Shown piece by piece: positions 5,218 through 52,760 of a DNA stretch of 64,000 nt. The stretch spans positions 104,932-168,931 of the forward strand of contig CAXXFC010000006.1 in NCBI GenBank assembly GCA_963662635.2, written 5' to 3'. The DNA is from Arenicellales bacterium. GTDB lineage: Bacteria; Pseudomonadota; Gammaproteobacteria; Arenicellales; JAJDZL01. Below the pieces are notes generated by a model. The model saw only the letters and a list, made by a program, of their open reading frames with translations. It did no database searches and was not told the origin of the DNA. The first letter of the stretch is position 1. Every line of letters starts with the position of its first letter. Both the position numbers and the translations under genes were made by a program.

Positions 5218-5865
5218 TCAAGGACCAAGCCATTCACTCATCCACTTGCCCGACAGATTCCGAAAATTCAACCGCTGATGCAGGCGGTCGGTACGCCCCT
5301 GCCAGAATTCGATGTGATCCGGAATTAGCCTATAACCACCCCATCCAGGCGGCCTTGGCACCGCACTACCCGCGAATCTTTGCTCGAATTCAACAACACA
5401 GCTTTCCAGTGCCTCAAAGCTTTCGATCACCTCACTTTGCGGTGAGGCCCAAGCACTGATCTGGCTGCCCCGTGGCCGCGTCGCAAAGTACTCATCGGAC
5501 TTATGCTCGGATAGTTTTTTGACACTTCCTTCAATCCGCACCTGCCGATAGAGTTTGTCCCACCACAATACAAGACTGGCATATGGATTGCCCTGCAACT
5601 CCTTCGACTTGCGACTATCATAATTTGTATAGAACTCGAACCCTGACTCGCCGTAACCTTTCAGCAATACCTGGCGCGCCGAAGGCCGACCATTCGCTCC
5701 GATTGTGGCCAGCGTCATTGCGAAGGGTTCAATCATCCCGCTGTTGATCGCATCATCCATCCATGATGAGAACAGCTCGAACGGGGCGACTGATAAATTG
5801 AGTGATAAAGGCTCCCGCATTTTAGAGTGAGAATCAGTGAATGAGGCTAAAAGCCAGCTAAGCAC
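5218..5865 (-). CDS. pdxH: Pyridoxamine 5'-phosphate oxidase
   Basis: Collinear with E. coli PdxH ([55 protein letters not shown]). The true start may be the internal MREPL at about 5820. Confidence 0.9.
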
Positions 5866-6029
5866 AATAACTTGATTTCGACAAACTTATCCAATCCATA
5901 CTTTAATCCTTCGCGTCTGATTACAGATTCTTTCATACCTTCGAACGGTGTAACTTCGGTCGAGATGATTCCGGTATGGATACAGACTATCCCGTACTCA
6001 AGCAACTCCGAGATGTTCGTGATTCTTCC
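5847..6029 (-). pseudogene. Stub of a succinate-semialdehyde dehydrogenase 3' end (last ~60 codons only)
   Basis: [60 protein letters not shown] matches the C-terminus of the intact gabD at 9585..9767. About 46 of 60 residues are identical by eye. There is no upstream coding continuation. Confidence 0.8.
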
Positions 6030-6043
6030 GACATTCTGATTGC

Positions 6044-6772: not shown

Positions 6773-7968
6773 TCAGCCCGATGTGTCAAGGTCAAGCTGA
6801 AAAGTCACGCGAACAAAGCGGCCGGACTCGTCATTGACAAGGGCCGGTTCCGTCCCATTGATTTCCCACATCAATTTCCGCATGAGCAGCCAGCCTCGCC
6901 CTCTTCGTTCCATCAGTCCGGTGACTACAATTGCGTTGGCCATCATTTCGTTTCGCGAACGCGCAGCACCACCGGAACGCGCATGCTCGACAGTCATATG
7001 ATTTGGGAGTGTTCCGGGACTCGTCACGTCGATCCGGTCGCTAAACACTTCAAGCAGCACCTGCGTTCCAGTCAGTGCATAGTCGCGGTGAATGACGGCG
7101 TTAACGACTGCCTCTCGAAGCACCTCTTCCGGAATAAGTGGATTATCCTCTCGGCGCAAGCCACGGAAATTCTCTTGTCGCCCGAGGCTCCGAAACCAGT
7201 CGATAGAGCGCATTACCTGATCCTCCAGGCATCCTTTTCCCTCGCCCACGCTCAAGACGTCAGCCGCTCTGTCCGTCCCGTCATAGGCAGCGAATTGAAC
7301 AAACAGACTTGTAGTATACGGATAGGACTGGGGGTCTCGCCCAAATACCATCAAACCGTAAAGAGTCGGAGTCAGTACATTGTCTTGGATGCTGCATACT
7401 GAAGCGTTTTTGAGATCGGTTTCAATATCAAGAAGCGAATCTTCCTCAACTGACCTGCCCTGTTTTCGCATAAATGAACGAAATGCGGCGAGATCAATAT
7501 CGCTTGTCGTGGCTGACAGAATAACTTGCTGCTCTGTAAGAACAAGGCCAAATGTATTTGAAAGTTCCTGAAGTTCAGAAGGTGATGGTGCTACACTGCT
7601 ACGCCCGCGTCGAATCTAGAATCGACCATCATAGTTGAACGGCTGACCGCTGCGCTGGCGACCGCGCACTTCAACCCAATGTACCCACCTTCGTCCGATT
7701 TAAATCGATCGCACTCGGCGGATATTGGCCTTCCACAGCTGTTTTGCAGAATACTCGTCAGTTTTTCCTGCACTTTTTCGGTGTTCTCCTCCACACCTAC
7801 GATGTTCTGTGAGTCATCTACTCCCAGTACGAGAAGACCGCCGTCACCATTGGCAAAAGCACAGAGTGTTCTACTGATAGCTGAACGGTCAAATCCGCGC
7901 TTGAATTCTGTTCGTGCGTTTTCGCCCGATTCAATTCGACCCACAATTTCAAGCCATTCAATAGTCAT
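6773..7968 (-). pseudogene. AlbA_2 (Schlafen-like) + HATPase_c_4 regulator/ATPase-like protein, disrupted
   Basis: The N-terminal ORF (7591..7968) has the AlbA_2 pattern (ESGENARTEFKRGF...LCAFANGDGGLLVLGVDD). The C-terminal ORF (6773..7471) has LREAVVNAVIHRDY...TSPG...RSRN. The frame of the second ORF stays open up to an in-frame TAG at 7616..7618. A frameshift near 7680 joins it to the first ORF. Confidence 0.7.
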
Positions 7969-8276
7969 GTTCTAAATTCGTATATCCGTCGGCACAGTTC
8001 AATATCGGCAATTTCAAATTTAGATCCAGAGTGAATATTTGTCTAAGTCTCTCATCAGCTATGCGTGTCTTGGCAGTGTATCATACTGTTCGGATTTATC
8101 ACCATATCAAGGCAGACATTGAAATTCTGAAGAGTCCATCCAGTTCCGTACGCCTGTGCCTGCTACAGGTGCACGCGAACCACTAATTCAATTCAGTAGT
8201 CCTGCGATCACGTCGTTGACGCATAGATGCAAATTTGATAGAATATCATCATTTATCGTCGAAATATGACGACAAT

Positions 8277-9437
8277 ATGTTAAAAAAGATCTACTCGCGA
8301 CTGACCCAGCCACCGGGGCAAAGCTTCTTTCTGCTAGGCGTCCGCGGTGTAGGCAAAAGCACCTGGGTGCGTCACCATTTCCCCGATGTGCCGTACATCG
8401 ACCTGCTCGACGAAGCCCGCTACCAGGACTACCTTGCCGACCCGTTCCTCTTCGCCGCCGATCTCCAGTCAGCGGCACCAAACAGCTGGATCGTGGTTGA
8501 CGAAATCCAGCGTCTTCCAAATCTCCTCAATGAAGTGCACCGGCACATCGAGAATCGACGTATCAACTTCGCTCTGTTAGGGTCGAGCGCGCGAAAACTC
8601 AAGGCATCAGGTGTAAACTTGCTCGCTGGCCGCGCGCTGCACAAAACCATGCATCCCCTGACTGCAACCGAGCTCGGCAATGACTTTGATCTCAATGCAG
8701 TCCTTGAAATAGGAACTATCTCCTTGATCTGGGCCGCGGCTGACCGACGCCCCGTGCTTGAGACCTACGTCCGGTATTACCTTCGCGAAGAGGTCCGGGC
8801 CGAAGGGTTGGTTCGAAATCTCCCAGGATTCGCGCGATTCCTGCCGATCGCTGCACTGTACCACGGTCAAGTCGTCAATATTTCCGGAATCGCGCGTGAC
8901 TGCGGCGTCGCACGAACCACAGTGCAGGGATATCTGGACATCCTTGAGGATACATTGCTCACGTTTCGCCTCCATGCATTCCAGCCGCGACTCCGAGTGC
9001 GCGAGCGCCACCATCCCAAACTCTACTGGGTCGATTCAGGTCTGGTCCGTGCAGTAAAGAAGTTGCACGGACCGATTGCGCCTGAAGAGCGCGGCGCGCT
9101 TCTTGAAGGTTGGGTACTGCATCTTTTGCGGGCTCACGCTGAGGAGGATGAGTTGTTCGATGATGTGTACTACTGGGCACCGCACCCGGCAAACCGCAAC
9201 GAAGTCGACTTCGTACTCCGCCGGGGCAATGATCTGATGGCGATCGAAGTCAAGTCCCAGTCTCGCTATTACACCGGAATGCTATCGGGTTTACGCGCAA
9301 TAGCGGAACTCCGCGGACTGATTCGACGGGTGCTCGTCTACGGGGGTAAAAGATCTTTTCGAACCGAAGATGGAATCGACGTATGGTCCATGGATCAGTT
9401 GCTCCAAGCACTCGCCGAAAATGCTCTGTGGCCTTGA
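8277..9437 (+). CDS. AAA_14 / DUF4143-type ATPase with C-terminal PD-(D/E)xK-like module
   Basis: Walker A GVRGVGKST, Walker B-like WIVVDEIQ, and a DUF4143-like HTH segment (ISGIARDCGVARTTVQGYLDILEDTLL). The C-terminus reads NEVDFVLRRGNDLMAIEVKS. The start is taken at ATG 8277 (MLKKIYSRL) rather than TTG 8235. The gene is visibly more GC-rich than its flanks. Confidence 0.8.
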   Translation: MLKKIYSRLTQPPGQSFFLLGVRGVGKSTWVRHHFPDVPYIDLLDEARYQDYLADPFLFAADLQSAAPNSWIVVDEIQRLPNLLNEVHRHIENRRINFALLGSSARKLKASGVNLLAGRALHKTMHPLTATELGNDFDLNAVLEIGTISLIWAAADRRPVLETYVRYYLREEVRAEGLVRNLPGFARFLPIAALYHGQVVNISGIARDCGVARTTVQGYLDILEDTLLTFRLHAFQPRLRVRERHHPKLYWVDSGLVRAVKKLHGPIAPEERGALLEGWVLHLLRAHAEEDELFDDVYYWAPHPANRNEVDFVLRRGNDLMAIEVKSQSRYYTGMLSGLRAIAELRGLIRRVLVYGGKRSFRTEDGIDVWSMDQLLQALAENALWP

Positions 9438-9584
9438 GAGCCTCTAAAATCGAGCACGAAACCGTGACGACTCAAATTCTCGCTTGAATTCCGTTCGCGC
9501 ATCTCCACCCGATCAATACGATTCAGAATGTCGAACCATCCAACAGCCATGTTTCAAATTACAACTGTCGGCGAGTGAACGAGG

Positions 9585-11042
9585 CTATATGCCAGCCATG
9601 CACAAGTATTTGATTTCGACAAACTCGTCCAGTCCATACTTCGATCCTTCGCGCCCGATTCCGGATTCCTTCATGCCTCCGAACGGTGCAACCTCGGTTG
9701 AGATGATTCCGGTATTGATACCGACAATTCCATATTCCAGCGACTCCGAAATTTTCCAGATCCTTCCGATGTCCCGACTGTACAGATAGGCTGCAAGTCC
9801 AAATTCGGTATCGTTTGCCATCGCTATCGCTTCCTCATCATTGTTGAATCGAAATAGCGGCGCGACTGGGCCGAATGTCTCTTCATTCGCAACATCCATG
9901 CCAACTTTGACATTGGTCAGTACCGTCGGTTGAAAAAATGTACCGCCCAGAGCATGACGCGCGCCACCGGCGGCAACCAAAGCTCCTTTTCCAACTGCAT
10001 CCGTTATATGCGCCTCCACCTTTTCCACCGCGGCAATATCAATCAATGGTCCCTGTTCGACACCCTCGCCAAATCCGTCTCCGACTTTCATGCCGTTCAC
10101 CGCGGCACTCAATTTTTCTGAGAATTCATCATATACCTGATCATGCACAAGTACTCGATTTGCGCATACACAGGTTTGCCCGGAATTTCGATACTTCGAT
10201 TGCATCGCGCCGACGACCGCCGCATCGATGTCGGCATCCTCAAACACAATGAACGGTGCGTTACCACCCAATTCCAAGGAAATTTTCTTGACAGTACCCG
10301 CACACTGCTCCATCAGTTTCTTTCCGATCTCAGTTGATCCGGTAAAGGTCAGTTTCCTCACTTTTTCGTTCGATGTCAGTTCCGCGCCTATCGCAGAAGA
10401 AGATCCGGTAATCACATTGATCACGCCCGGTGGTATCCCGGCCCGTTCAGCCAATTCACAAAGAGCGAAGGCGGAATATGGTGTTGCACTGGCAGGTTTG
10501 ATCACGATTGTGCAACCGGCTGCGAGAGCTGGACCCGCTTTTCTTGTAATCATCGCGGACGGGAAATTCCACGGCGTGATCGCCGCGCACACACCAACCG
10601 GCTCCTTGATCACAACGATTCGGCGGTCTGGCAGATGACTGGGAATGACATCGCCATACATACGTTTGCCTTCTTCCGCAAACCACTCGAAAAACGATGC
10701 CGCGTATGCCACCTCACCGCGTGATTCCGTCATCGGTTTCCCCTGTTCTATCGTCATCAGGCTTGCCAGATCCTCTAGATTGTCCATCATCAGATCAGTC
10801 AATTTGCGCAACTTCACAGCGCGTTCCTTGGCTGTGGTTGAGCGCCACGATTGAAATGCAGTTTCCGCAGCGTCTATCGCTCTTGCGGTTTCTGTTTCAC
10901 CCATCTTGGGAACAGAACCGATAACACCTCCTGTTGCGGGATTTGTGACGGTGATGGTGTCGCCGCTATCAGCATCTACCCATTCACCATTGACGTAACA
11001 CTGGTTACGAAAAAGTCTCTTGTCTCGAATTTTTGCAATCAT
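9585..11042 (-). CDS. gabD: Succinate-semialdehyde dehydrogenase (NAD(P)+)
   Basis: 485-aa aldehyde dehydrogenase with FTGST.IGK, ELGGNAP and QTCVCANR catalytic-Cys region. The GabD-like N-terminus reads CYVNGEWVDADSGDTITVTNPATG. Confidence 0.9.
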   Translation of the reverse strand: MIAKIRDKRLFRNQCYVNGEWVDADSGDTITVTNPATGGVIGSVPKMGETETARAIDAAETAFQSWRSTTAKERAVKLRKLTDLMMDNLEDLASLMTIEQGKPMTESRGEVAYAASFFEWFAEEGKRMYGDVIPSHLPDRRIVVIKEPVGVCAAITPWNFPSAMITRKAGPALAAGCTIVIKPASATPYSAFALCELAERAGIPPGVINVITGSSSAIGAELTSNEKVRKLTFTGSTEIGKKLMEQCAGTVKKISLELGGNAPFIVFEDADIDAAVVGAMQSKYRNSGQTCVCANRVLVHDQVYDEFSEKLSAAVNGMKVGDGFGEGVEQGPLIDIAAVEKVEAHITDAVGKGALVAAGGARHALGGTFFQPTVLTNVKVGMDVANEETFGPVAPLFRFNNDEEAIAMANDTEFGLAAYLYSRDIGRIWKISESLEYGIVGINTGIISTEVAPFGGMKESGIGREGSKYGLDEFVEIKYLCMAGI

Positions 11043-24691: not shown

Positions 24692-25444
24692 CTACCACAG
24701 CATTTTCGATATCGGATTCTGACTGCCCGGAGGTGCGTTCAATTTCTTTCCGATATACTTCCTTCTCATCCCTTCATCTGCCGGGATACCATCGAAACAA
24801 TACCTCGTTCCCTTGTATGGTTTATCAGTTTCCCCGTGTATAGTCGGATCATGCTCATACCAGCTGTTCTTGTCCACCCGGAACAATCCGACACAGATCT
24901 GGTCGCATACTGCCGCGACATGATGTTCCGTGGCATTCAGTTCTTTGGCATCCACTCTCCATGCCATTCTGACAGCCACATATGCATCAAATTCGCTGTT
25001 TTCCAATGTTCTGCGATTGATTTTGATGCACAGGATTGGAACACCGGGTTCATTCGGCATCTCCTCCGGTTCATATCTCTGTATCAGCTGATCCACGGTA
25101 GCAGAACCCCGATCACTGTTGTGACCCGAAACCACATTGGTCAGATTGTTCATGTAACAGTCGATGACCGCAGCCTCCACCTCGTATGCGGTGCGCTCGT
25201 CCAGCCCGTGCCGATGTATGATATGATGCGGTTCCATTCCGAAATTGAGGATATCCCGAATCTGCGCTAGTTTCAGGGAACTCTCGTTCTCCTCCCCGGT
25301 CACACTGATTTGCGCCAGCACATGCTCGTATACCCGGCCACCCCGACCCTTACCGACATAGAAAGTATGGCCTGTCCGGGGATCAATCAGTCTGTATACG
25401 TAATAGCCGAGATTGTCGGATACAGTCTTGGAAATTGCTCTCAT
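24692..25444 (-). CDS. GIY-YIG nuclease family protein
   Basis: The N-terminus YYVYRLIDPRTGHTFYVGKGRGGRVYEH is a GIY-x(10)-YVG motif, followed by conserved R/E/N positions. AGGAG lies 6 nt upstream of the ATG. Confidence 0.75.
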   Translation of the reverse strand: MRAISKTVSDNLGYYVYRLIDPRTGHTFYVGKGRGGRVYEHVLAQISVTGEENESSLKLAQIRDILNFGMEPHHIIHRHGLDERTAYEVEAAVIDCYMNNLTNVVSGHNSDRGSATVDQLIQRYEPEEMPNEPGVPILCIKINRRTLENSEFDAYVAVRMAWRVDAKELNATEHHVAAVCDQICVGLFRVDKNSWYEHDPTIHGETDKPYKGTRYCFDGIPADEGMRRKYIGKKLNAPPGSQNPISKMLW

Positions 25445-25508
25445 GATGTTCTCCTGTGGTAGTGCTCGATCAGGTCATTTGACTTTTTCGTTGCATCGAA
25501 TCAGTTGT

Positions 25509-26878
25509 GGGCACGTCTATTTATTCGACATTAATGATACAGCCTGAGACTGGGAGAGTGAAGGCGACTCGGATTCGCGATTTCCGGTTCGATATGAGAT
25601 AATATGGATTCATCGGTAAGTCATTCATTTTGCGGATTAATTGCAGGGTATTTGAGATGGAGAGACGGCATCTGTTCGAGCGTGAGATGCAGCAGCGGGC
25701 GCTGGAGGAATTTGATGGTCTGGCGCGTATCAGGGCGCTGGTGGACTGGGAGGTGTTTGTACCGGTGCTTGAGGAGATTTTCGGTGTCTCCCATGGCGGT
25801 CCGGGGCGGCCGGCCTGGGATCCGCTGGTGATGTTCCGCTCGATCCTGCTGGGTGTGATGCACTCGCTGAGCGACCGCGACCTGCAGTTCATGCTGCTGG
25901 ACCGGCGCACCTTCAAGCAGTTTGCGGGACTTCAGAGCGATGATCAGGTGCCGGATCAGAAGACCCTGTGGAAGTACCGCGACCTGCTGAGCCGGTCGGG
26001 TCGGATTGACGAGCTGTTCGATCTTTTCAAGGCGCAGCTGCGCTCGCATGGCTACGAGCTCACCAGCGGACAGATTGTGGACTCGTCGATTGTCGAGGTG
26101 CCGCGTCAGCGCAACAGCCGCGAGGACAACCGGACGGTGAAGTCCGGCGAGGTGCCGGAGTCCTGGCAGGACAATCCGAACAAGCTGTGCCAGAAGGACA
26201 CCGATGCGCGCTGGACGAAAAAGCGCAATCAGAACCATTTCGGCTACAAGAACCACATCTCGGCGGACCGGGAGACGAAGTTCATTGACGAATGGGAGGT
26301 GACGGCGGCGAGCACGCACGACTCGCAGGTGTTCGTTGAGCTGTTGCCGGAACGGCCCACGGGCGATTGTCAGGTATGGGCCGACAGTGCCTACCGTTCG
26401 GAGGATGCGTTGAGGAAGCTGCGGAAGCGCGGTTACAAGCCCCGCATCAACCACAAGGCGACGCGTGCGAAGGCTTTGAGCGACCGTCAGGACGGGGTGA
26501 ACCGGGCGTATTCGAAAGTGCGCTGCCGGGTGGAGCATGTGTTCGGGTCGATGACCAACGAGATGCCGGAGCGGTACATGCGCTGTATCGGGAAGACGAG
26601 GGCGCGGAGCTGGATCGGGTTGCGCAACCTTTGCTACAACATGAGGCGGCTGAGCTATCTGCAGCCGTCGTTGTCGGCGGTGTAGGGGAAGTTGTGTCCG
26701 AATGGGCGAAATTCAGGGCAGTGAGGCTCGGATCAGGGGGTTTTCAGGCCGGAAATTGCGGAAAATCGCCTTCGGAGCGGGAAATTTTCGGAAAATGCGG
26801 TGCGGAAGCTTGGATTTTTTCAAAAATCGGCATCGGACACTCAGGGGCTCTCAATTTTCAGGGTTAATAGAGGTGCCC
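25509..26878 (+). mobile_element. IS5-family insertion sequence (1370 bp)
   Basis: Terminal inverted repeats GGGCACGTCTATTTAT (25509..25524) and the reverse complement of 26863..26878 (GGGCACCTCTATTAAC) match at 13 of 16 positions. Direct TTGT repeats sit at 25505..25508 and 26879..26882. It carries a single transposase ORF and is clearly more GC-rich than its flanks. Confidence 0.85.
25657..26685 (+). CDS. IS5-family DDE transposase
   Basis: N-terminus GRPAWDPLVMFRSILLGVMHSLSDRDLQFMLLDRRTFKQFAGL, then DSSIVEVPRQRN, GYKNHISADRETKFI and ADSAYRS. This matches the IS5-type Tnp pattern. ATG at 25657. Confidence 0.9.
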   Translation: MERRHLFEREMQQRALEEFDGLARIRALVDWEVFVPVLEEIFGVSHGGPGRPAWDPLVMFRSILLGVMHSLSDRDLQFMLLDRRTFKQFAGLQSDDQVPDQKTLWKYRDLLSRSGRIDELFDLFKAQLRSHGYELTSGQIVDSSIVEVPRQRNSREDNRTVKSGEVPESWQDNPNKLCQKDTDARWTKKRNQNHFGYKNHISADRETKFIDEWEVTAASTHDSQVFVELLPERPTGDCQVWADSAYRSEDALRKLRKRGYKPRINHKATRAKALSDRQDGVNRAYSKVRCRVEHVFGSMTNEMPERYMRCIGKTRARSWIGLRNLCYNMRRLSYLQPSLSAV

Positions 26879-26957: not shown

Positions 26958-28952
26958 TCAGTTTTGTTGTTCCTTTTGTAGAAGAGCCTTCCAACCTTCA
27001 TAGATCATAACCATTGCCATGGAATCCAATTCGCAATATTTGAGAAGTGCTTTTTGGATCTCCTCACGCTCAAAGTCCAACATTTCTTCCGACTGCATCC
27101 GGGTATAAGCTGTCATGGCAGCACCGCCTTCTCGTAGCTCATCATCGCTAGACATCAAATATCGCATATCACTTTCTGGAATATTCTGAAACATAGGGGG
27201 CAGACTTTTATATGGATCAATTACTTTCCCGTCCTTATACTTGATCCAAATTTTGTTTTCAAAATCTTTGCTGCGGATTCCATCTTTAGATCCGTAGATT
27301 GGTTTTGAATATTTGTTCTGCAGGAAAGTGGAGCTGTTCAGGATTGCCGGAAGCACGTCCTTAATAGAGTTGGAGCCTTTGGTGGCGGGGTCGTAGTAGT
27401 AGCGCTTGACGATTTCCCACAGGTCCACCATAGTGCGCTTACCTTTGCATTCATCTTTATGAGTTATTGACTTGATAAACTCACAAAGTTCATCCCGATC
27501 TGCAATTTGACCCTTTTCATCCTGAAACTGACGGTAAATCATGTTCAGGGTATTGTATTCATGGCGGGCATATTGAAAGATAGTACCGTTGTCGTCTTTG
27601 AGCTGAGCATTTAGTGCTCTCACAAATTCGAAGTTCGGAAACGTCCCTCGTTCCTTATTCAAAAACTGACCAAAGTGCTCCACAGAACCATCTTCACTAA
27701 CAACATGATGAGAAAACTGAAATGCGATTCCCTCATAAGGTCCGCGTCCCGCATAGAAAGGAATTGCTACGCTCGCGGTTTCAAAGTCAATAAAGTGGAG
27801 TGGAAAATCCCAGCTGTACATCTCTCTTCGAAGACTCTCCCGGTCCAGCCAGATCGAGTAGTCTCCGTTTTGCACTTTCTCGACCTGAAGCCACTGTCGT
27901 TCTTTTTGTGAAAGACCCGGTCCTATATTTTTTTCCGGCTTAGGAATGATGTTCGCCTTGGAAAGTTGGGACATTTTGATAATGCCATCTTGAATCAGCT
28001 GATTCTTATCCCTTTCATCCTTACCCCGACCAATTGCTTGCCATACATCTAGAACGGTGGGGCATTCGAAATCTTGGTCATTCCACCCCAATTGATCTTT
28101 CCAGCATCTCTTAAATCCGCTTTCCAAACCAATCCGTTCTTCATCATCCGTTGTACGAAACTCGCATTTAGCGCATGCCGTCGATATCGGTGTCGAGAAT
28201 GGCGAATCTGGAACATAGTAGTCCGCCAACCAGTCAACCCATTGTTCAAAGTTTAGCGACTGCTCACCTCCATCGTATGTATCGGAATAAATATTTTTGT
28301 ATTCTGCATCCACATTCATCTTGCGGAGAATTGGCGGTATTAAATCTTCTTCCGTCAGGGTTTCCGATACGGAAACAGAGACTCGATTATTGCTATCTTT
28401 AACTAATTGAAACTTTTGATTGAGACCATCTGTCGGACATTTCGCAGATTTGTCGACCAGCATGAGATTGACCGAAACTTCATATTGAGGATAAGCTCGT
28501 TCAATGACAATCTTCTGAAAGGCAACATCATATAGGTATGGTCTGTTTTGTTTGTTTTGTAAAAACTTGTTTTTCTCTTTAGGGTCTATCGATTTGGCCT
28601 TCACTTCATAGAGGCTGAGTCTGTTTTTATCTTTTACCAGAATATCTGCACGGATGAAAAGTTTATCGGTCGCGATTGCCGCTTCGAATATCGTGACCTG
28701 ATCCAACCCGAGCAACTCGTTGGTCTGCTCCAATGCTTTATCGTGATCTTGAGTTTTGATTTCCTCGCCTCCCGGAAAATAATGTTTAGCGAGTTCGCCC
28801 ACCTGATTACCGCCATCTGCCAGTGCGAGAAGGAAACTGTTTTTTGGTTTTTGATTGGCGTACTTGTCTTTTTTACCGGTGCAAAAAAGCTTCGTGGGGC
28901 ATTCGGTAGCCAGCTTGAATATAGATTTCGTCAGGTATCTGTTTTTCTCCAT
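26958..28952 (-). CDS. DUF2779 protein: N-terminal PD-(D/E)xK (Cas4/RecB-like) plus C-terminal RNase H-like exonuclease-type domain
   Basis: YLTKSIFKLATECPTKLF and IRADILVKD...LSLYEVKAKS give a D...ExK pattern. Later comes FIDFETASVAIPFYAGRGPYEGIAFQFSHH, remembered as the DUF2779 hallmark. ATG 28952 is preceded by AAGGAG. Confidence 0.7.
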   Translation of the reverse strand: MEKNRYLTKSIFKLATECPTKLFCTGKKDKYANQKPKNSFLLALADGGNQVGELAKHYFPGGEEIKTQDHDKALEQTNELLGLDQVTIFEAAIATDKLFIRADILVKDKNRLSLYEVKAKSIDPKEKNKFLQNKQNRPYLYDVAFQKIVIERAYPQYEVSVNLMLVDKSAKCPTDGLNQKFQLVKDSNNRVSVSVSETLTEEDLIPPILRKMNVDAEYKNIYSDTYDGGEQSLNFEQWVDWLADYYVPDSPFSTPISTACAKCEFRTTDDEERIGLESGFKRCWKDQLGWNDQDFECPTVLDVWQAIGRGKDERDKNQLIQDGIIKMSQLSKANIIPKPEKNIGPGLSQKERQWLQVEKVQNGDYSIWLDRESLRREMYSWDFPLHFIDFETASVAIPFYAGRGPYEGIAFQFSHHVVSEDGSVEHFGQFLNKERGTFPNFEFVRALNAQLKDDNGTIFQYARHEYNTLNMIYRQFQDEKGQIADRDELCEFIKSITHKDECKGKRTMVDLWEIVKRYYYDPATKGSNSIKDVLPAILNSSTFLQNKYSKPIYGSKDGIRSKDFENKIWIKYKDGKVIDPYKSLPPMFQNIPESDMRYLMSSDDELREGGAAMTAYTRMQSEEMLDFEREEIQKALLKYCELDSMAMVMIYEGWKALLQKEQQN

Positions 28953-29225
28953 CGGTATCTCTCCTTGATATCCACTATTGACGACCATATTCATAGACTA
29001 GAATGTCCATTTATTCAACGTTAATGGCATATCCATAGTCGGGGCAAAGTATATCTGAAAATAGTCGTACCAAATTAGCGCCTCGGAAGTTTTGAAAATT
29101 ACCTTCGTTCAGATATTATTTGAAGTCCTGACTGACATACATTCAGGTCAAACAGTACAGATTTCTACATTTGGTAATCAACCTGTTGGATTCTGCATGA
29201 TTTAAATTTCTGATTGTCTGTAAAC

Positions 29226-30188: not shown

Positions 30189-30605
30189 TTACAAGAAAGA
30201 GGGCTTGATGCCAGTCTCCTTGAAGTCTCGAATATTACGCGTCGCTACCGTCATACCGCGAGAACGTACAATGGCAGCAATTTGAATGTCTACAATCGGT
30301 ATCACAATCCCAGAGGCACGATATGTTGCCGCCAAATCCGCGTAACTTCGAGCTGCCCCTTATTGTCAAACGGCAGCATGCGATTATCGAACGCTTCGCA
30401 AATTAAATTTTCAATTTTTAAAAATCAGCCTATCACGCCGTCGTCCCAAGGGTAGAACAGCCGCACCAAATCGCAACTCGACTTCGCCGACCGCTGAAAA
30501 GTACAGACTTTCCACAGATTGAATGTCAGCCCGCTTCTTTACGGCTGGGTTCGGGGATATGCGAATCAACCCGGGCACCACATTGGTATCAACAAGTATT
30601 GACAT
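30189..30605 (-). pseudogene. vapC: VapC (PIN-domain) toxin with an internal stop and a frameshift
   Basis: MSILVDTNVVPGLIRISPNPAVKKRADIQSVESLYFSAVGEVELRFGAAVLPLGRRRDRL, then a stop. It continues as ENLICEAFDNRMLPFDNKG, then in another frame AARSYADLAATYRASGIVIPIVDIQIAAIVRSRGMTVATRNIRDFKETGI. This is collinear with FitB/VapC-type PIN toxins. Confidence 0.75.
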
Positions 30606-30641
30606 GTTTGCAAAATTGGTCGAATGACGGAGGTTCGCGCC

Positions 30642-30676
30642 CTTGTGTATCGTCATTTGACCGATGTCGGGTAAGG
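30642..30676. repeat. Left terminal inverted repeat of element copy A
   Basis: See the element entry. The core GTCATTYGACYRATGTCGG(G)TAA is shared by all four termini. Confidence 0.75.
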
Positions 30677-31002
30677 GTTCGACCGCGTGAAGAACGTACA
30701 AGCGTTGGTGAATTGTGGTTCTGGTCGCTGCGCACAGGCGATCCCGGTCCGACAGCCGGACGACGAAATCCCAACTGTCCACACTCATCGCTTCAGTCCT
30801 GAGTCCACAAAGTGGTCTTCTTCCTGTCGGACGACAGGGACATCCAATTGAGTATTCAGGTCACTGTTCAGGCGGACGGCTGGCGGGCCATCCGACCGGA
30901 TCAATTCGCAGTATCGTAGTATCATGGAGACCGGACCGGTCATTGAAACTCTGACTGGATATTGCCGATGGGCAGATCAACCTGAGATTTGAGGTGGCGA
31001 AG

Positions 31003-31746
31003 ATGCCGGAACAGGAGAACCTGACGACTGAGGAAAGGATTCAGAAGATACGCGAGGAGACCGAGCGGATCAATCAGCGTGCCGCTGAAACGCGTGCGGA
31101 AACGGAAGAGATTCGGAAGCAATCCGAAAAGATCCGGAAGCAGTCGGAAAAGAGATGGAAGGAACTCAGGAAAGAAATTGCGAAGGTGAATGCGGCGGCT
31201 ACGAAGCTGGCCGCGACGGCGAAAGAACACGGCAAGCAGATCGGCGGACACAACAACAAGTTCGGAAGCTACACCGAGGCACTTGCGGAACCCTCCATCC
31301 GGCGGATTCTGGACGAGTATTTCGATGCCGACCACATGGAGTCGTACGAGCGCGGAAACCTGCAGCTGGATGGCTGGGGTGTCGCCCGCAACGGCACCGG
31401 TGCGGCCTATGTGGTGGAGGTCAAGAGCAAGTTTGAGCCTGAGCATCTGGATCAGGTGTGGCGACTGGTCAGGATGTTTCGCATTGAAAAGCCCGAGTTT
31501 GAGTCAAGGGAGGTGTATCCGATTCTTGCGGTAGTGGAGATCGACAAGGACCAGCGTGAGCTAGTGTGGAAGTCGGGCATTCACCTGATTGACGTGTCGG
31601 AAGGTGTGTTCGAGTGGACCCGGCCGCCCATGGGGTTCAGTCCGTGCGGCGATCATGGTGCGAATGGTGTCGTGCGAAGGGCGGTACCACGGCATCTGCG
31701 ACTGGTTGCGGACAGCAACAAGCACGGCGATGCAGGAGGTCAGTGA
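31003..31746 (+). CDS. Coiled-coil + putative PD-(D/E)xK nuclease-fold protein (element ORF, copy A)
   Basis: ATG 31003 is preceded by GAGGTGG. The N-terminal ~70 aa are charged heptad-like (EERIQKIREETERINQRAAETRAETEEIRKQSEK). The core has LQLDGWG...AAYVVEVKSKF (D...ExK spacing). Over a 179-aa core it differs from copy B at 13 positions. I could not find a DDE, HUH, serine or tyrosine recombinase motif. Confidence 0.75.
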   Translation: MPEQENLTTEERIQKIREETERINQRAAETRAETEEIRKQSEKIRKQSEKRWKELRKEIAKVNAAATKLAATAKEHGKQIGGHNNKFGSYTEALAEPSIRRILDEYFDADHMESYERGNLQLDGWGVARNGTGAAYVVEVKSKFEPEHLDQVWRLVRMFRIEKPEFESREVYPILAVVEIDKDQRELVWKSGIHLIDVSEGVFEWTRPPMGFSPCGDHGANGVVRRAVPRHLRLVADSNKHGDAGGQ

Positions 31747-31831
31747 GGAGGTAGCAGGTGGACCGGGATCATCTGCAGGTGAGGATAGACTGGCGGTTCA
31801 TGATCGGGAGGTACACATCAGGCTCAAGCGA

Positions 31832-31866
31832 CTTTACCCGACATCAGTCGAATGACTCGACATTAG
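31832..31866. repeat. Right terminal inverted repeat of element copy A
   Basis: The plus strand reads CTTTACCCGACATCAGTCGAATGACTCGACATTAG. Confidence 0.75.
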
Positions 31867-39945: not shown

Positions 39946-40962
39946 ATGCGTAAATCTGTAGAAACAACGATGCGTTTCATCGCGACCCTTCAGGCTATCC
40001 CGGTTCATCCCCGGAGCAAAAGCGCGCTTCAAATCCAGAAAGAGTTAAGAGACATAAACCCCGATTATGCTGTCGATGTCCGTTCGGTTCAACGTAGCCT
40101 ACTGCAAATCAGTCGCGCGTATCCAATCAACTATGTCACGCGCAATCGTACCCATTATTGGTTCTGGATCGACAAAAATGCCCTCACACAAATTCCGGCG
40201 ATGAGTGAACAAACGGCATTTGCATTGCGTCTTGCGGACGAATACCTGCGACCGATCATTCCATCGGAAACTCTGAATCTGCTGGAAAAATACTTCAAGC
40301 AAGCTGACGAAGTTCTCGGCAATACTGAATTAAATAACTTCTCCGACCGAGTAGCTATCGTACAGACAGGACTGACATTGAAATCGCCGGCAGTTTCCGA
40401 AGAGGTGCGGGATGCTGTCTTCCGAGCAGTATTGAAAAAGAGAAAACTAAAACTACTGTATCGCGGCAAGCACAAGAAACATCCACGAATTTTTGTTCTC
40501 GATCCGCTAGGTGTTGTCGTTCGCACCAGCATGACCTATCTGGTCGCTACAGCTGAAAATTATGAGGATGTCCGACATTATGTACTCCATCGAATGAGCG
40601 AAGTGCGTGTGCTAAGTGAACCAATGGAGGAGTTGGCGGATTTCGACCTAAATAGATATTTGAATGACTACAGTTCATTTGCCTATCCGTTAAGCAATCA
40701 AACCATTGCGCTTCGCGCGAGATTTGATTCCGAAGCCGGCGCGCATCTCACCGAGTGCAATCTCTCGCATGATCACCGCGCGACAGAACAGGCAGATGGA
40801 CAGATCCTGTTGGAGGCTACGGTTGCCGACACTGCACAACTACGTTGGTGGTTGGCAGCCTTCGGCAGTCAAGTGGAGGTATTGGAGCCGTCTTCTTTAC
40901 GAGAAGAGTTTCTGGCTGAAACTCGACAACTAGCCGAAATCTATGGGGCAGATTCAGAATAG
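39946..40962 (+). CDS. HTH-WYL-WCX transcriptional regulator
   Basis: 338 aa: an N-terminal wHTH-like segment and a central WYL-type region (LKLLYRGKHKKHPRIFVLDPLGVVVRTSMTYLVATAENYEDVRHYVLHRMSEV). The C-terminus is WCX-like (LRWWLAAFGSQVEVLEP..LR). Confidence 0.75.
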   Translation: MRKSVETTMRFIATLQAIPVHPRSKSALQIQKELRDINPDYAVDVRSVQRSLLQISRAYPINYVTRNRTHYWFWIDKNALTQIPAMSEQTAFALRLADEYLRPIIPSETLNLLEKYFKQADEVLGNTELNNFSDRVAIVQTGLTLKSPAVSEEVRDAVFRAVLKKRKLKLLYRGKHKKHPRIFVLDPLGVVVRTSMTYLVATAENYEDVRHYVLHRMSEVRVLSEPMEELADFDLNRYLNDYSSFAYPLSNQTIALRARFDSEAGAHLTECNLSHDHRATEQADGQILLEATVADTAQLRWWLAAFGSQVEVLEPSSLREEFLAETRQLAEIYGADSE

Positions 40963-43674: not shown

Positions 43675-45345
43675 TCATCTCCAGGCCACGACATTCCGTA
43701 ATCGTCGCCAGACCGGACTGTCTCCCTCAGCCCCGGATTCAGGCAGCTCCCGGGCAGACTCTGCGCGCAAGTCCAAAAGATTGCGCTCCTCACCACCGAA
43801 CACCATGGCAACCAGATGAACCTCGCCACCTTGGCCGCGATACTGATCCCCGTAGCCGCGATCTCTCATCTGCCGCATCGCCGCATCAAGTGCCCTGTCG
43901 ATCCTGTGCCCGTGCCTGCCCCCGACCAGCTTCGTCTCGATCACATACACCTCGCCGGCATGCGTGACCACCAGGTCCGCCTTGCCCCGGTTCGACGCCA
44001 CCTCCCTCTGAACATCCGCTCCCACCGCCAGCAGGTACGTCTGCAGCACAATGAGATAGTGACTCTCCGATTCGGCTTTGCCGCTTTTGCGGTACCAGTC
44101 GTGCGGAATCGCCGCATACACAGCTCGCAACCGCTCGGCCAGCCCGCCGAAATCTTTCGACTCCAGACAGCCCAGCACAGCGTTTGCGTCACGACTCACG
44201 GCCTCCGCATCGCACCCCACATAAGCCAGAAGACCCGCGTTGAATCTCACACTCACCTCAAGGTTCGGATACTCCAGGGTGTAGATCGTATCCGGGCCGA
44301 CACGCTGCTGTTCTCCCACCGTCAGATACCCCGACTGGAACATCAGCGCGCGAAGATCGATGTCCCCGACATCAAACTGGACCAGCTGCTCCTTGGTGAC
44401 CGTTCCACCGTCAAACTCCATCAGCGGATAATTCCTCTCCCTGATCAGCCGGTACAGATAGGTCGGTGTCCCGCTCTGAAACCAATATGATTCAAATTGC
44501 CTTTTTTTCAACAGAAACAGGATGTCCCAGGGATTGTAGAGCCAGTGCTCGCCCAGCCAGTTGTAGCCGTTATACCAGCGACGGATCTCCTCGCGGTCCA
44601 ATCCCTCGAGCTCTGGCGCGAACACCGTGTCAAGCTCGTCATCGGTGAATCCGCAGATCGACGCATAGCGGGGATCCAGGGAGATGTCCTCAAGATTGTT
44701 CAGCCCGGAGAACAGGCTGACCTTCGAGAACATCGTGATGCCGGTGACAAACACAAACCTGACATGTCGGGCACAGCCCTTAATGATGCCGTAGAACCCC
44801 CGGAGGTAGTCCCGGTTCGCCCTCGCCAGCTCAGGGTTGTCCAAGACATCCAGGATCGGCTTGTCATACTCATCGACCAGTACCACCACCTGCTGACCGG
44901 CGCTCTGATGCAAACGATGAATCAGCGCTTCCAAATGATGTGATGCATTGATGCCGGTCTCACCTGTCTCAATACCGGCATCATCCGCAATCCGTTTCAA
45001 CTTGCCATGAATGTGCTGATCAATCTCTTCGGGACTGTTGTACTGACCGTCAAAACTCAGCCGCACGACAGGATGCCGGACCGACCAGTCCCAGCTGTCG
45101 TGGATCGCAAGCCCGCGGAACAAGTCCTCCTCGCCTGCGAAAAGCTCATGCAGGGTGTCGACCAGAAGACTCTTGCCGAAACGGCGCGGACGGGAAAGGA
45201 AATAGTGGCTCTCCAGACCGCCCGTCAATTGATGGATCAGGGAAGTCTTGTCAACGTAGTAGCCGTTGCCTTCGCGGAGCGTGCGGAAACTTTGAATTCC
45301 GGTCGGAATGAACTTGCGCTCATCAACTTTCTGTCTTTCACCCAT
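43675..45345 (-). CDS. AAA-ATPase_like (PF09820-type) + PDDEXK_9 nuclease-fold protein
   Basis: The N-terminus FIPTGIQSFRTLREGNGYYVDKTSLIHQL...FLSRPRRFGKSLLVDTL is the remembered hallmark of this family. The C-terminus EVASNRGKADLVVTHAGEVYVIETK is a PD-(D/E)xK pattern. The gene is markedly GC-rich. Confidence 0.8.
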   Translation of the reverse strand: MGERQKVDERKFIPTGIQSFRTLREGNGYYVDKTSLIHQLTGGLESHYFLSRPRRFGKSLLVDTLHELFAGEEDLFRGLAIHDSWDWSVRHPVVRLSFDGQYNSPEEIDQHIHGKLKRIADDAGIETGETGINASHHLEALIHRLHQSAGQQVVVLVDEYDKPILDVLDNPELARANRDYLRGFYGIIKGCARHVRFVFVTGITMFSKVSLFSGLNNLEDISLDPRYASICGFTDDELDTVFAPELEGLDREEIRRWYNGYNWLGEHWLYNPWDILFLLKKRQFESYWFQSGTPTYLYRLIRERNYPLMEFDGGTVTKEQLVQFDVGDIDLRALMFQSGYLTVGEQQRVGPDTIYTLEYPNLEVSVRFNAGLLAYVGCDAEAVSRDANAVLGCLESKDFGGLAERLRAVYAAIPHDWYRKSGKAESESHYLIVLQTYLLAVGADVQREVASNRGKADLVVTHAGEVYVIETKLVGGRHGHRIDRALDAAMRQMRDRGYGDQYRGQGGEVHLVAMVFGGEERNLLDLRAESARELPESGAEGDSPVWRRLRNVVAWR

Positions 45346-45787: not shown

Positions 45788-46015
45788 TGGCAATTCAATT
45801 ACAGATAACACGCTTCTTATTCTGGAAAATATTCCATTCTGCTTAGCTCTGCATTACAAAATCTAACCCCCTAGATGTGTCCAGCCAATCGACTAATGTC
45901 GGCTACGTCAACTCGTGCTGTTCCGAATTTGTGAGTGTCACGACATATCATTCCGTAAACAATTTGGCCCGACTGTCTGAAATCATCAGAGTGTTCATTC
46001 AAAGTCTTGCTTGAC

Positions 46016-50392: not shown

Positions 50393-50422
50393 TTACAATC
50401 CTAGCGTGCTATGGGACCCTAG
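50393..50422 (-). pseudogene. yafQ: 3' stub of yafQ displaced by element copy B
   Basis: The minus strand reads CTA GGG TCC CAT AGC ACG CTA GGA TTG TAA (LGSHSTLGL-stop). This is the missing GSHS..L C-terminus of a YafQ/RelE toxin, immediately outside the element terminus. Confidence 0.8.
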
Positions 50423-50451
50423 TGTCCGGTCATTCGACTAATGTCGTAAAG
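50419..50451. repeat. Terminal inverted repeat of element copy B (ORF-distal end)
   Basis: See the element entry. Confidence 0.8.
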
Positions 50452-50553
50452 TCGTTTCAGCCTGATGTGCGCATCCCCGGTCGTGAACTGCCAGTATACC
50501 CTCACCGGCAGATGATCCTGGTCCACCTGCCTCCTCCTCACTTACCTCTCGCA

Positions 50554-51273
50554 TCACTGCGCCTGCTGCTGTCCACGCCCCTTATCCGCGACCAGTCGCA
50601 GATGTCGCGGCACCGCCCGTCGCACGACACCATTCGCGCCATAATCGCCGCACGGCCTGAACCCCATGGGCGGCCGGGTCCACTCGAACACGCCGTCCGA
50701 CACGTCAATCAGGTGAATGCCCGATTCCCACACAAGCTCACGCTGGTCCTTGTCGATCTCAACCACTGCAAGAATCGGATATACCTCCCTTGACTCGAAC
50801 TCGGGCTTTTCAATGCGAAAATGCCTGACCAGCCGCCACACCTGATCCAGATGCTCAGGCTCAAACTTGCTCTTGACCTCCACTATATAGGCCGCTCCGG
50901 TGCCGTTGCGGGCGATACCCCAGCCATCCAGCTGCAGGTTTCCGCGCTCGTACGACTCCATGTAGTCGGCATCGAAATGCTCGTCCAGTACCCGCCGGAC
51001 GGAGGGTTCCACAAGCGCCTCGGTGTAGCTTCCGAACTTGTTGTTGTGTCCGCCGATCTGCTTGCCGTGCTCTTTCGCCGTCGCGGCCAGCTTCGTAGCC
51101 GTCGCATTCACCTTCGCAATCTTTTTACCGAGTTTCTTCCATTTCTTATCGGACCGCTTCCACCTTTCTTCGCGTTCCTCTTGCATTTTGACGACACGCT
51201 GATTGATCCGCTCGGTCTCCTCGCGTATCTTCTGAATCCTTTCCTCAGTCGTCAGATTCTCCTGTTCCGGCAT
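50554..51273 (-). CDS. Coiled-coil + putative PD-(D/E)xK nuclease-fold protein (element ORF, copy B)
   Basis: ATG 51273 (MPEQEN...) is preceded by GAGGTGC. It is a paralogue of 31003..31746. The coiled-coil segment is ~7 aa shorter and diverged, and the last ~9 aa differ. Confidence 0.75.
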   Translation of the reverse strand: MPEQENLTTEERIQKIREETERINQRVVKMQEEREERWKRSDKKWKKLGKKIAKVNATATKLAATAKEHGKQIGGHNNKFGSYTEALVEPSVRRVLDEHFDADYMESYERGNLQLDGWGIARNGTGAAYIVEVKSKFEPEHLDQVWRLVRHFRIEKPEFESREVYPILAVVEIDKDQRELVWESGIHLIDVSDGVFEWTRPPMGFRPCGDYGANGVVRRAVPRHLRLVADKGRGQQQAQ

Positions 51274-51492
51274 CTTCGGCACCTCGCATGTCAAGTTGAT
51301 TTCCCCGTCGGCAAAATCCAGTCAAATGTCTGATGACCGGTCCGGTCTCCATGATACTACGATACGGCGAATTGATCGGGTCGGATTGCCCAATTGGAGA
51401 TCCCTGTCGCCGGGCAGTCGGACCGGGATCGACTGTCCGCAACGACAGAACCGCAATTCACAACCGCTGGTGCGCGCTTCACACTGACAAAA

Positions 51493-51526
51493 CCTTACCG
51501 ACATTGGTCAAATGACTATACACTAG
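51493..51526. repeat. Terminal inverted repeat of element copy B (ORF-proximal end)
   Basis: See the element entry. Confidence 0.8.
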
Positions 51527-51777
51527 GCGTACCAATTGCAGACTCTCTTTACCCTCCAGTCTGTAGATCAACACTAAATTTGAGCTAAGTGACTATCCCG
51601 ATGATCACGCCAGTTACCGCTTAACGGGTGATCGCGATATCTCTGGTCGAGCGGGATGTCATTAGCCAAGTTCTTCACGATTTCTTCCAGACGAACTTCG
51701 ACTACTGATTTATATTTGCCCCTAAGTTCTCGCCTATATTCGCGCTTGAACCGGGTCGTCCGATCAATCTGGCGCAT
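51523..51777 (-). pseudogene. yafQ: yafQ (RelE-superfamily mRNA interferase) 5' part, frameshifted and interrupted by element copy B
   Basis: MRQIDRTTRFKREYRRELRGKYKSVVEV...DQRYRDHPLSGNWRDHRDSHL, then a 1-nt frameshift near 51586..51591. It continues as SSNLVLIYRLEGKESLQLVRL up to the element boundary. The start overlaps the restored dinJ stop. Confidence 0.8.
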
Positions 51778-52026
51778 TCATATCTTCAATTAATTCCTCA
51801 ACGCTGTTAAAACTCTTTACTTTACCTTCTCGCGCGTCATTCATGGCGGCAATTGTTTCCGCATTTGGAATGAGGGGATCAAACACAACCTTTTTTCTTT
51901 TGCGATTCGAATCAACAATAGACGAAAAGCATCGGAGACTGTTAGACCTGCGTCGGCCAAAACTTCTGTAGCTTCCTTTTCAATACTTTCGTCTACGCTT
52001 ATGCGTACGATCGAGGTACTCGACAT
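51764..52026 (-). pseudogene. dinJ: dinJ/relB-family antitoxin with a homopolymer frameshift
   Basis: MSSTSIVRISVDESIEKEATEVLADAGLTVSDAFRLLLIRIAKEK, then a frame change at an A6 run (plus-strand T6, 51891..51896). The other frame continues VVFDPLIPNAETIAAMNDAREGKVKSFNSVEELIEDMNAPD-stop, the expected DinJ tail. Confidence 0.75.
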
Positions 52027-52192
52027 ATAGTTCTCCGGTTCATACCGTTGCAAATTTGCAGGTTTTAATATACTCATTTACCTCAATTCGGTGTCTTGGT
52101 TTATATGTCGCATCAATTTTTGATTGTACGCGGCAAGTCCTGACTGGCATATACAATGTTTACTAAATTCATCTATGTTTAGGAAATTTGAT

Positions 52193-52415
52193 ATGACAAC
52201 ATTTAGTGTTCACTATGCTAAAACTCACTTGTCAAGAATATTGACTACCTTAGATGTATATGATGAGGTGATCATCACTCGTTATGGAATACCAATCGCA
52301 CGATTGATCCCCTATGCTCCGCAAATTACGAAACGACAACCTGGCAAGTTGAAAAAAAATTCAAGGCGGACGACTCTTTCTTTGACCAACTTCCGGATGA
52401 AGAACTGTCTGCTTG
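52193..52415 (+). pseudogene. Phd/YefM-family antitoxin with a homopolymer frameshift
   Basis: MTTFSVHYAKTHLSRILTTLDVYDEVIITRYGIPIARLIPYAPQITKRQPGKLK, then an A8 run (52352..52359). The +1 frame continues FKADDSFFDQLPDEELSAWSE-stop, the usual tail of VapC-associated Phd antitoxins. Confidence 0.7.
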
Positions 52416-52760
52416 GAGTGAATGAAGACTGAAAGAAGTCGCGCAATTATTACTTGATTCTCATACTTTTTGGGTGGCTAACCGATGACAAGCGACTCTC
52501 CAAGAAAGCACAAGATTCAACTCGCGACTCGAAACAGGTGTTTTCGTCAGTTTGATTTGGAGCTGCTTTGGAAATGTGAAAATCTAAGGTTGATCGCTAA
52601 AGGTGCAATAGGTTTTATCGGCAAACTGATTCGGAATACGATTTGATGGTTGACTTGTAGACCAGCTACCATAAAGGCTCATCTGCAACTTTCACGAAGC
52701 ATGCAAGCCAAGAACTCTTCCAGACATTTCAATGCTGTGCGACCGTAGGCAGATCTACAC
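52412..52760 (+). pseudogene. vapC: VapC (PIN) toxin remnant, heavily decayed
   Basis: ATGA overlaps the antitoxin stop. Fragments in three frames: LLLDSHTFW, WLTDDKRLSKKAQDSTRDSKQVF, LELLWKCENLRLIAKG. They follow the PIN pattern LLLDTH.flW......LS..A...i.......vS..S.WE..iK...gkL. The 3' limit is uncertain. Confidence 0.55.

Follow-up and report, generated by a model that had tools for sequence, protein, structure and literature searches.

Single-gene cassettes with terminal inverted repeats in Arenicellales carry a DUF3782-type nuclease gene and are probably mobilised in trans

The 64-kb stretch of Arenicellales DNA analysed here in full (contig CAXXFC010000006.1, positions 104,932 to 168,931; hereafter the window, with positions counted from its first letter) contains two copies of a short element bounded by terminal inverted repeats (TIRs), each with a single intact open reading frame (ORF). 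A first-pass annotation of the sequence had proposed that the copies lie in opposite orientation and share one plan of TIR, leader, ORF and tail, and this was borne out by matches to the TIR core, by a TIR profile and by alignment of the copies, which are 87% identical over the aligned element and differ by indels in the leader and in the coiled-coil part of the ORF. The annotation had set the ends at 30642-31866 and 50419-51526; the copies do lie there, but the outermost four bases on each side proved to be flanking tetranucleotides. The leader measures 357 nt in copy A and 249 nt in copy B, which lacks 108 nt found in copy A, and the tails are 116 nt and 131 nt long, respectively. Both copies are richer in G+C than their surroundings, as first described, with values of 0.564 and 0.568 compared to 0.47-0.48 in the flanks.

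The TIRs of both copies are imperfect and approximately 35 bp long, and follow the pattern TGTnnnGTCATTYGACYRATGTCGG, which reads CTAGTGTnnnGTCATTYGACYRATGTCGG when the flank is included. Four perfect matches to the TIR core GTCATTYGACYRATGTCG were found in the window, corresponding to the four element ends, together with two further degenerate matches, where 0.53 would be expected by chance in 64 kb at up to 3 mismatches. We also built a TIR profile from nine ends belonging to the window species. This profile recovered the four ends at about E = 1e-9 to 1e-11, those of copy A scoring E = 5e-10 and 4e-9. A solo right-end TIR and a right-end remnant, both missed by the first-pass annotation, are listed with the other features in Table 1. 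No element body adjoins the solo TIR, and neither the TIR profile nor comparison with a sister strain (described below) revealed a partner end for it. The remnant lies 10 nt to the left of copy A, between copy A and a truncated PIN-like ORF.

Table 1. Coordinates of the two element copies and associated features in the window (dot, no strand assigned)
Feature	Positions	Strand	Description and basis
Copy A, element proper	30646-31862	+	1217 bp, TGT...ACA; alignment with copy B, TIR core matches, TIR profile
Left TIR of copy A	30646-30680	+	TGTATCGTCATTTGACCGATGTCGGGTAAGG; core matches and TIR profile
Right TIR of copy A	31828-31862	-	Core matches and TIR profile
Copy A left flank	30642-30645	.	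CTTG, decayed CTAG-type duplication; read from sequence
Copy A right flank	31863-31866	.	TTAG; read from sequence
Most conserved leader block	30900-30945	+	…TCGCAGTATCGTAGTATCATGGAGACCGGACCGGTC…; -10-like TAGTAT and palindrome GACCGGnCCGGTC
ORF A	31003-31746	+	247 aa; coiled coil ~9-73, PD-(D/E)xK core ~89-205, C-terminal RRAVPRHLRLV tail
Copy B, element proper	50423-51522	-	1100 bp; alignment with copy A, TIR core matches, TIR profile
Copy B left-junction CTAG	51523-51526	.	Target duplication; junction reading and yafQ reconstruction
Copy B right-junction CTAG	50419-50422	.	Target duplication; junction reading and yafQ reconstruction
ORF B	50554-51273	-	239 aa; paralogue of ORF A with shorter coiled coil
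5' part of yafQ-type toxin gene split by copy B	51527-51777	-	Pfam YafQ_toxin; also a frameshift near 51590
3' end of split yafQ-type gene	50393-50418	-	…GSHSTLGL*; flank rejoining
Solo TIR, right-end type	45871-45905	+	CTAG before it; core with 2 mismatches; TIR profile E = 2.4e-4
Right-end remnant	30611-30635	+	~25 nt; core with 2 mismatches; TIR profile E = 0.12, borderline

Copy B splits a yafQ-type toxin gene. When the two flanks were rejoined with a single CTAG, the product matched Pfam YafQ_toxin over positions 1-86 of 88 with 89 bits, whereas rejoining without CTAG gave 75 bits and a match that stopped at position 79. Because one CTAG restores the yafQ match, the insertion must have duplicated CTAG or its central TA, and copy B is therefore a genuine insertion. 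The four complete copies known from the window species have the junction tetramers CTGG/CTAG, CTAG/CTAG, CTAA/CTTA and CTTG/TTAG, all of them CTAG or CTAG-like. A 6-bp NCTAGN duplication of the IS481-like kind and an 8-bp duplication were both ruled out for the window copies, the flanks beyond CTAG being inverted rather than direct. CTAG is itself a rare word in the window, with 42 occurrences against 249 expected from base composition, a six-fold depletion. The tetramers TTAA, CTAA and TTAG are depleted too, and GATC is enriched (360 occurrences).

The products of ORF A and ORF B are identical at 204 of 239 aligned residues, and their differences fall mostly in the coiled coil. No transposase, recombinase or HUH family matched the ORF in Pfam and NCBIfam at E <= 10, in keeping with the earlier remark that signatures of DDE, HUH and recombinase enzymes are absent. 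In an alignment of 37 homologues, residues E92, D123, E139, K141 and S142 are invariant and form a classical PD-(D/E)xK site, so that the D...ExK spacing first read by eye from the window proteins holds for the family; the C-terminal motif RRAVPxHLRLV is conserved as well. The AlphaFold model consists of a long N-terminal helix (residues 9-73) and an alpha/beta core with pLDDT of 80-91. In Foldseek searches of the PDB, NucS/EndoMS and SPO1766 were the best matches (probability 1.00, E 9e-5 to 5e-4), followed by weaker matches to the R.BspD6I small subunit, SfsA and the nuclease domains of Card1/Can2 (probability 0.84-0.99). Structure prediction, Foldseek and profile searches thus agree with the proposed DUF3782-type protein with a coiled-coil N-terminus and a PD-(D/E)xK fold, which is a DNA-hydrolysing fold.

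The likeness to NucS/EndoMS and to small restriction-type nucleases extends to the fold of the catalytic core and, in the predicted structure, to the D...ExK active-site geometry. However, the sequences are only 17-20% identical, the genes lie in a different genomic context, and the window protein lacks the N-terminal domain of NucS and any PCNA or clamp motif. A suggested relation to TnsA or to Rpn/YhgA did not hold up: neither TnsA nor Transposase_31 (Rpn/YhgA-type) appeared among the Pfam matches at E <= 10, TnsA did not figure in the top 50 structural matches from the PDB, and no TnsB-like partner gene is present. Searches of PHROGs, PADLOC and PDB sequences returned only coiled-coil noise, plus one weak PD_DExK match in PADLOC, and a plasmid collection held no homologue of the protein or of the element.

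The window proteins match PF12644 (DUF3782) at E = 0.29 and 0.049, which does not reach the gathering score, and the domain is carried by 7 of the 37 close homologues. When a profile of the Arenicellales proteins was compared to 1.8 billion representatives, 2368 cluster representatives were recovered as relatives. Ten remote relatives were sampled; six of them matched PF12644 at E <= 2e-4, three of these above the gathering threshold, and one of the ten is named 'DUF3782 domain-containing protein' in its source. Judged by these profiles and the structural model, the ORF product is a predicted endonuclease belonging to a divergent branch of the DUF3782 coiled-coil PD-(D/E)xK family. Like other family members, the window proteins combine an N-terminal coiled-coil stalk with a C-terminal PD-(D/E)xK nuclease, but they fall below the Pfam threshold, and the distant members that we examined, all outside Arenicellales, are lone genes without TIRs. 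DUF3782 has been described as the coiled-coil stalk of a prokaryotic PD-(D/E)XK endonuclease family of unknown function (Hartmann et al. 2016, PMC4786415). The literature mentioning DUF3782, as far as it was searched, contains no link to mobile DNA and no description of a function.

A database search for homologues returned 37 close clusters, of which the single source-named one derives from Gammaproteobacteria/Arenicellales metagenome-assembled genomes (MAGs). The family alignment identified 28 genomic loci in 8 MAGs, all of them Arenicellales, and three of these MAGs carry at least 4-11 copies per genome. Full-length ORFs are present at 27 of the 28 loci, although several loci have lost one or both TIRs. 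MAG CAXXJB010000001.1 represents a sister strain close to the window strain and contains six copies, four with both TIRs, one with the left TIR only and one without TIRs; all six ORFs are intact. Copy A is inserted at the same site in the sister strain (L006, 99.5% identical), as is copy B (L003, 94.7% identical including flanks). These counts agree with the earlier view that the copies are diverged members of a family and not products of a recent duplication. No convincing TIRs were found around the distant DUF3782 genes or around loci L007, L009 and L026.

Pairwise dN/dS, calculated for the nuclease core, has a median value of 0.37 at dS values between 0.04 and 0.37. Together with the full-length ORFs at loci that have lost TIRs, this indicates that the ORFs are kept intact by selection that acts independently of mobility. 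The window copies are old: they are 13-25% diverged, occupy the same sites in the sister strain and have decayed target duplications. They are decaying as transposons but maintained as genes, and their movement has probably ended. One further locus (L154 3191-4738; ENA ERZ24894577 ctg521730l) carries two nuclease paralogues of 261 and 245 aa in tandem, 24 bp apart. This two-gene version of the cassette has a single left end (GTAACTACTCAC) followed by a leader, no recognisable right end, and a HipA_C fragment that abuts the tandem genes.

Other Arenicellales MAGs contain a sister lineage of elements with different ends. These elements are 1.4-2.0 kb long and consist of a leader of ~300 nt, a homologous ORF at 40-53% identity and a non-coding tail, enclosed by ends that read GTAACTACTCACCC or GTAACTGCTCACCC and follow the TIR pattern GTAACTRCTCACCC. 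They are flanked by 8-bp target duplications, namely GATTTTTC in L013 (8/8 positions), AAAT(G/A)AAC in L022 (7/8) and a 5/8 match in L016. Matching ends are known from ISDge4, an experimentally active member of the ISBst12 group of the IS66 family, which encodes a 449-aa DDE transposase, has the TIRs GTGACTACTCAGCA and GTAACTGCTCAGCA and generates an 8-bp repeat (PMC12898284). The sister ends are identical to the ISDge4 TIRs at 11-12 of 14 bases. IS66 ends generally start with GTAA, and members of the family are known to carry passenger genes, as in tIS66 (PMC12888890). The sister subfamily therefore resembles IS66/ISBst12 in its ends, its 8-bp duplications and its passenger carriage, whereas the window copies begin with TGT, have a 4-bp CTAG-type duplication and lack GTAA ends. 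Because the sister ends and their duplications match ISDge4, the nuclease is not needed to explain mobility.

The tails of the sister elements are long (500-790 nt; for example L013 3778-4287, L016 3796-4521 and L023 3706-4486) and ~70% conserved between genomes, and by eye only their last ~90 nt appear to correspond to any part of the window copies. They have no coding signal and no Rfam match, and a role as transposase-binding sites or as an RNA is conceivable. Transposase remnants in these tails were ruled out, as there is no frame-specific conservation, and a six-frame Pfam scan of a long sister-element tail gave no match. IS66 TnpC motifs were absent from all fetched flanks, and neither lineage contains a DDE TnpC gene or a detectable remnant of one.

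Based on these comparisons, the feature is probably of the mobile insertion cassette (MIC) kind: a TIR-bounded, non-autonomous unit that is mobilised in trans and carries a DUF3782-family coiled-coil PD-(D/E)xK endonuclease as cargo. We prefer trans-mobilisation because the ends and 8-bp duplications of the sister lineage are of IS66/ISBst12 type, while the window copies duplicate CTAG, as is typical of IS5 or IS630, and are bounded by other ends. Across the two lineages, the nuclease retains all its catalytic residues although the ends differ in sequence and the duplication goes from 8 bp to 4 bp, which argues that the ends follow an outside enzyme. The first-pass annotation had left the choice between two mechanisms; the trans-mobilised passenger element gains from the sister ends and the duplication lengths, and the nuclease-fold transposase found no positive support. 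The element is not a member of IS66 or IS5, since it has no DDE gene.

Duplication of the tetranucleotide CTAG is a signature of IS5 (PMC10379815), and duplication of TA within CTAG is given as that of IS630 by Tenzen and Ohtsubo (1991), as cited in PMC2170065. The CTAG target of the window copies fits either type. The likeness covers the target and its duplication, with CTAG at either end of copy B and tetramers resembling CTAG at every junction, but these families differ from the window elements, which contain no DDE gene and whose TIRs are unlike those of the resident IS5-family copy described below. We suppose that a DDE transposase whose gene lies elsewhere in the genome would bind the ~35-50 bp TIRs and move the cassette into CTAG, duplicating either CTAG, as an IS5-like enzyme would, or its central TA, as an IS630-like one would. 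The cargo gene would then probably be expressed from the conserved leader block, and its product, judging from the structural model, is probably an oligomeric, metal-dependent DNA endonuclease. Its role would most likely lie in defence, competition or addiction, and would serve to retain the cassette in the genome, not to move it.

MICs are TIR-bounded carriers of passenger genes without a transposase, such as the Tn3-derived cassettes of Xanthomonas (PMC4337579) and the qnrS2 MIC of Aeromonas plasmids (PMC5444012). The window elements share with them TIRs at both ends, a target duplication, the absence of an internal transposase, one passenger gene with apparent expression signals of its own, and a presumed mobilisation in trans. 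They differ in carrying a nuclease gene instead of a resistance or virulence gene, in their number (at least 4-11 copies in three genomes), and in the pairing of one cargo with two TIR types; nor was a parent insertion sequence (IS) found for the window lineage in the sequence searched.

Several observations weigh against this interpretation. The persistence of one cargo and architecture with two end types over order-level divergence, at such copy numbers, is unusual for a MIC, and the recurrence of the cargo would follow simply if the gene contributed to the spread of the element. Every sampled element has the ORF, in a sample that is biased because the ORF itself served to retrieve the loci. 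Neither polymorphic nor empty sites were seen, the sister strain having both insertions at the same sites, and so there is no sign of recent movement. Moreover, the 64-kb window and the ~250 kb of Arenicellales sequence retrieved yielded no autonomous IS whose TIRs match, and the TIR profile detected no further copies in those ~250 kb. A metagenome scan for GTCATTYGACYRATGTCG gave 120 single matches, none with an extended TIR, which we attribute to chance, and thus it yielded no partner. The resident IS5-family transposase gene (25630-26685, + strand, flanks about 25460-26850) was also rejected as the parent IS, because its apparent ends, which are IS5-like, are unrelated to the cassette TIRs.

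This resident gene encodes DDE_Tnp_1 and DUF772 domains in DNA of 60% G+C and shares 47% identity with annotated IS5-family transposases. Its neighbours are a GIY-YIG (LEM-3-like) gene on one side and a DUF2779 gene on the other. A likeness seen by eye, TAGTG…GTCATTTGAC at 25461-25484, was not significant with the TIR profile (E = 2, ranked 9th). The best inverted repeat around this copy, GAAGGCGA… at 25560 and 26773, was no better than those of shuffled sequences.

The failure to find a partner transposase with matching ends in the sequence searched is what would be expected if the element were autonomous. The PD-(D/E)xK protein would then itself be the transposase, or the sole element-encoded mobility enzyme, of a new IS class, cutting at the TIR tips and staggering the target while the host supplies repair and ligation. 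We consider this decidedly unlikely. The ORF is the sole constant among the 28 loci in 8 MAGs with their two TIR types and is kept intact, and a dimeric restriction-type nuclease that cuts the palindrome CTAG could conceivably both excise the CTAG-flanked element and open its targets. However, the sister ends and duplications match those of an element with its own DDE transposase, and 8-bp non-palindromic duplications such as GATTTTTC are a poor fit to a restriction-and-ligation route. Duplication length and end sequence vary while the protein is conserved, and no site-specific DNA-binding domain can be recognised in the protein, which is small. In addition, relatives outside Arenicellales are not TIR-bounded, and ORFs remain intact even in copies without TIRs. 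To our knowledge, strand transfer is not performed by PD-(D/E)xK enzymes. The related proposal that the DUF3782-type nuclease is the element's own mobility or propagation enzyme, either by cutting TIR tips and CTAG targets or by making breaks that drive copying, also seems unlikely to us.

PD-(D/E)xK homing endonucleases exist, and the nuclease gene is free-standing and multi-copy, two points in favour of a homing-type spread. Under such a scheme, the nuclease would cut empty alleles, the cassette would be copied in by recombinational repair, and the inverted repeats would be incidental. We regard this as highly improbable: the insertion sites are mutually unrelated except for CTAG, target duplications are present (of 4 bp in the window and of 8 bp in sister elements), the TIRs have stayed conserved (E = 1e-9) despite divergence of the interior, and there is no intron or intein context.

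Mobilisation of the cassette by an outside transposase, which we favour, could also be combined with an active part for the nuclease. In this combination, a DDE transposase acting in trans would move the cassette, and the nuclease would be a selfish helper, whether by addiction or exclusion, by anti-defence or defence, or by making breaks that promote repair copying. Such a helper would explain why cargo and vehicle have stayed together. The long-lasting association, the high copy number and purifying selection on all paralogues are consistent with it, and both window copies and L154 lie in or beside toxin-antitoxin remnants (yafQ/relB, the PIN-like ORF and HipA_C). The nearest structural neighbours, the NucS/EndoMS repair nucleases, with restriction endonucleases and CRISPR-ancillary nucleases as weaker matches, point the same way. 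Nevertheless, there is no direct evidence for any activity, the leader contains no conserved ORF for a partner immunity protein or antitoxin and is shorter by 108 nt in copy B, and PADLOC gave only coiled-coil noise and the one weak PD_DExK match. On balance, we judge a helper role of this sort to be rather unlikely.

The leader block listed in Table 1 is conserved in all six sister-strain copies and aligns with TGTGcTATGAT of the sister subfamily. A simple sigma-70 scan of the leader found no full consensus promoter; from its sequence, the block is presumed to be the element's own promoter or operator. The palindrome GACCGGnCCGGTC occupies 30930-30944 in copy A and the equivalent place in copy B, just downstream of the -10-like block. 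It is identical in 4 of the 6 sister-strain copies, degenerate in L004 and disrupted in L002, and is a possible operator. Rfam searches detected no RNA family within the elements.

If the cassettes are indeed hitch-hikers, they would provide the first biological context for DUF3782, with its 2368 cluster representatives, as the conserved cargo of such units. The same gene sits between IS66/ISBst12-type ends in most lineages and between different, CTAG-targeting ends in the window species, an arrangement unusual for MICs. A cargo that outlives its vehicle suggests selection on the nuclease itself for a function in defence, competition or addiction. Hitch-hiking elements are a known kind; this cassette is undescribed as far as the literature was searched, and what sets it apart is mainly that its nuclease cargo is conserved and that the ends of its vehicle have been exchanged. 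These elements also serve as a warning for annotation, since a single-gene unit bounded by TIRs need not be an insertion sequence and its ORF should not be labelled a transposase. Should the nuclease prove necessary for movement, which is less likely, the chemistry of transposition would be new; if it were the mobility enzyme, the elements would constitute a new class of transposable element in prokaryotes, based on the restriction-endonuclease fold, and a family with thousands of members would gain its first function.

The yafQ-type gene interrupted by copy B is preceded by a RelB-type antitoxin gene (51841-52077), and a Phd/YefM-type antitoxin ORF (52124-52432) belongs to the same cluster of toxin-antitoxin remnants (50393-52432). 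The truncated PIN-like ORF that adjoins copy A (30411-30606, MSILVDTNVV…) was recognised by eye and has no Pfam match; the TIR remnant occupies the position where its upstream antitoxin would be. Approximately 530 bp from the solo TIR at 45871 lies a G+C-rich gene for a predicted AAA-ATPase_like and PDDEXK_9 protein (43675-45345, - strand). An 81%-identical paralogous stretch (L005 4118-6124) adjoins another cassette copy in the sister strain, so that this stretch and the cassette or its ends are neighbours at least twice. Genes of the kind found in defence and mobile islands are located at 7591-9437, 24692-25444, 26958-28994 and 39946-40962, and include Schlafen/AlbA_2, AAA_14 with DUF4143, a LEM-3-like GIY-YIG nuclease, DUF2779 and a WYL/WCX regulator. 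Finally, the window contains a 207-nt direct repeat of 80% identity, unrelated to the cassette, at 5836-6042 and 9574-9780, its two units lying 3.7 kb apart.

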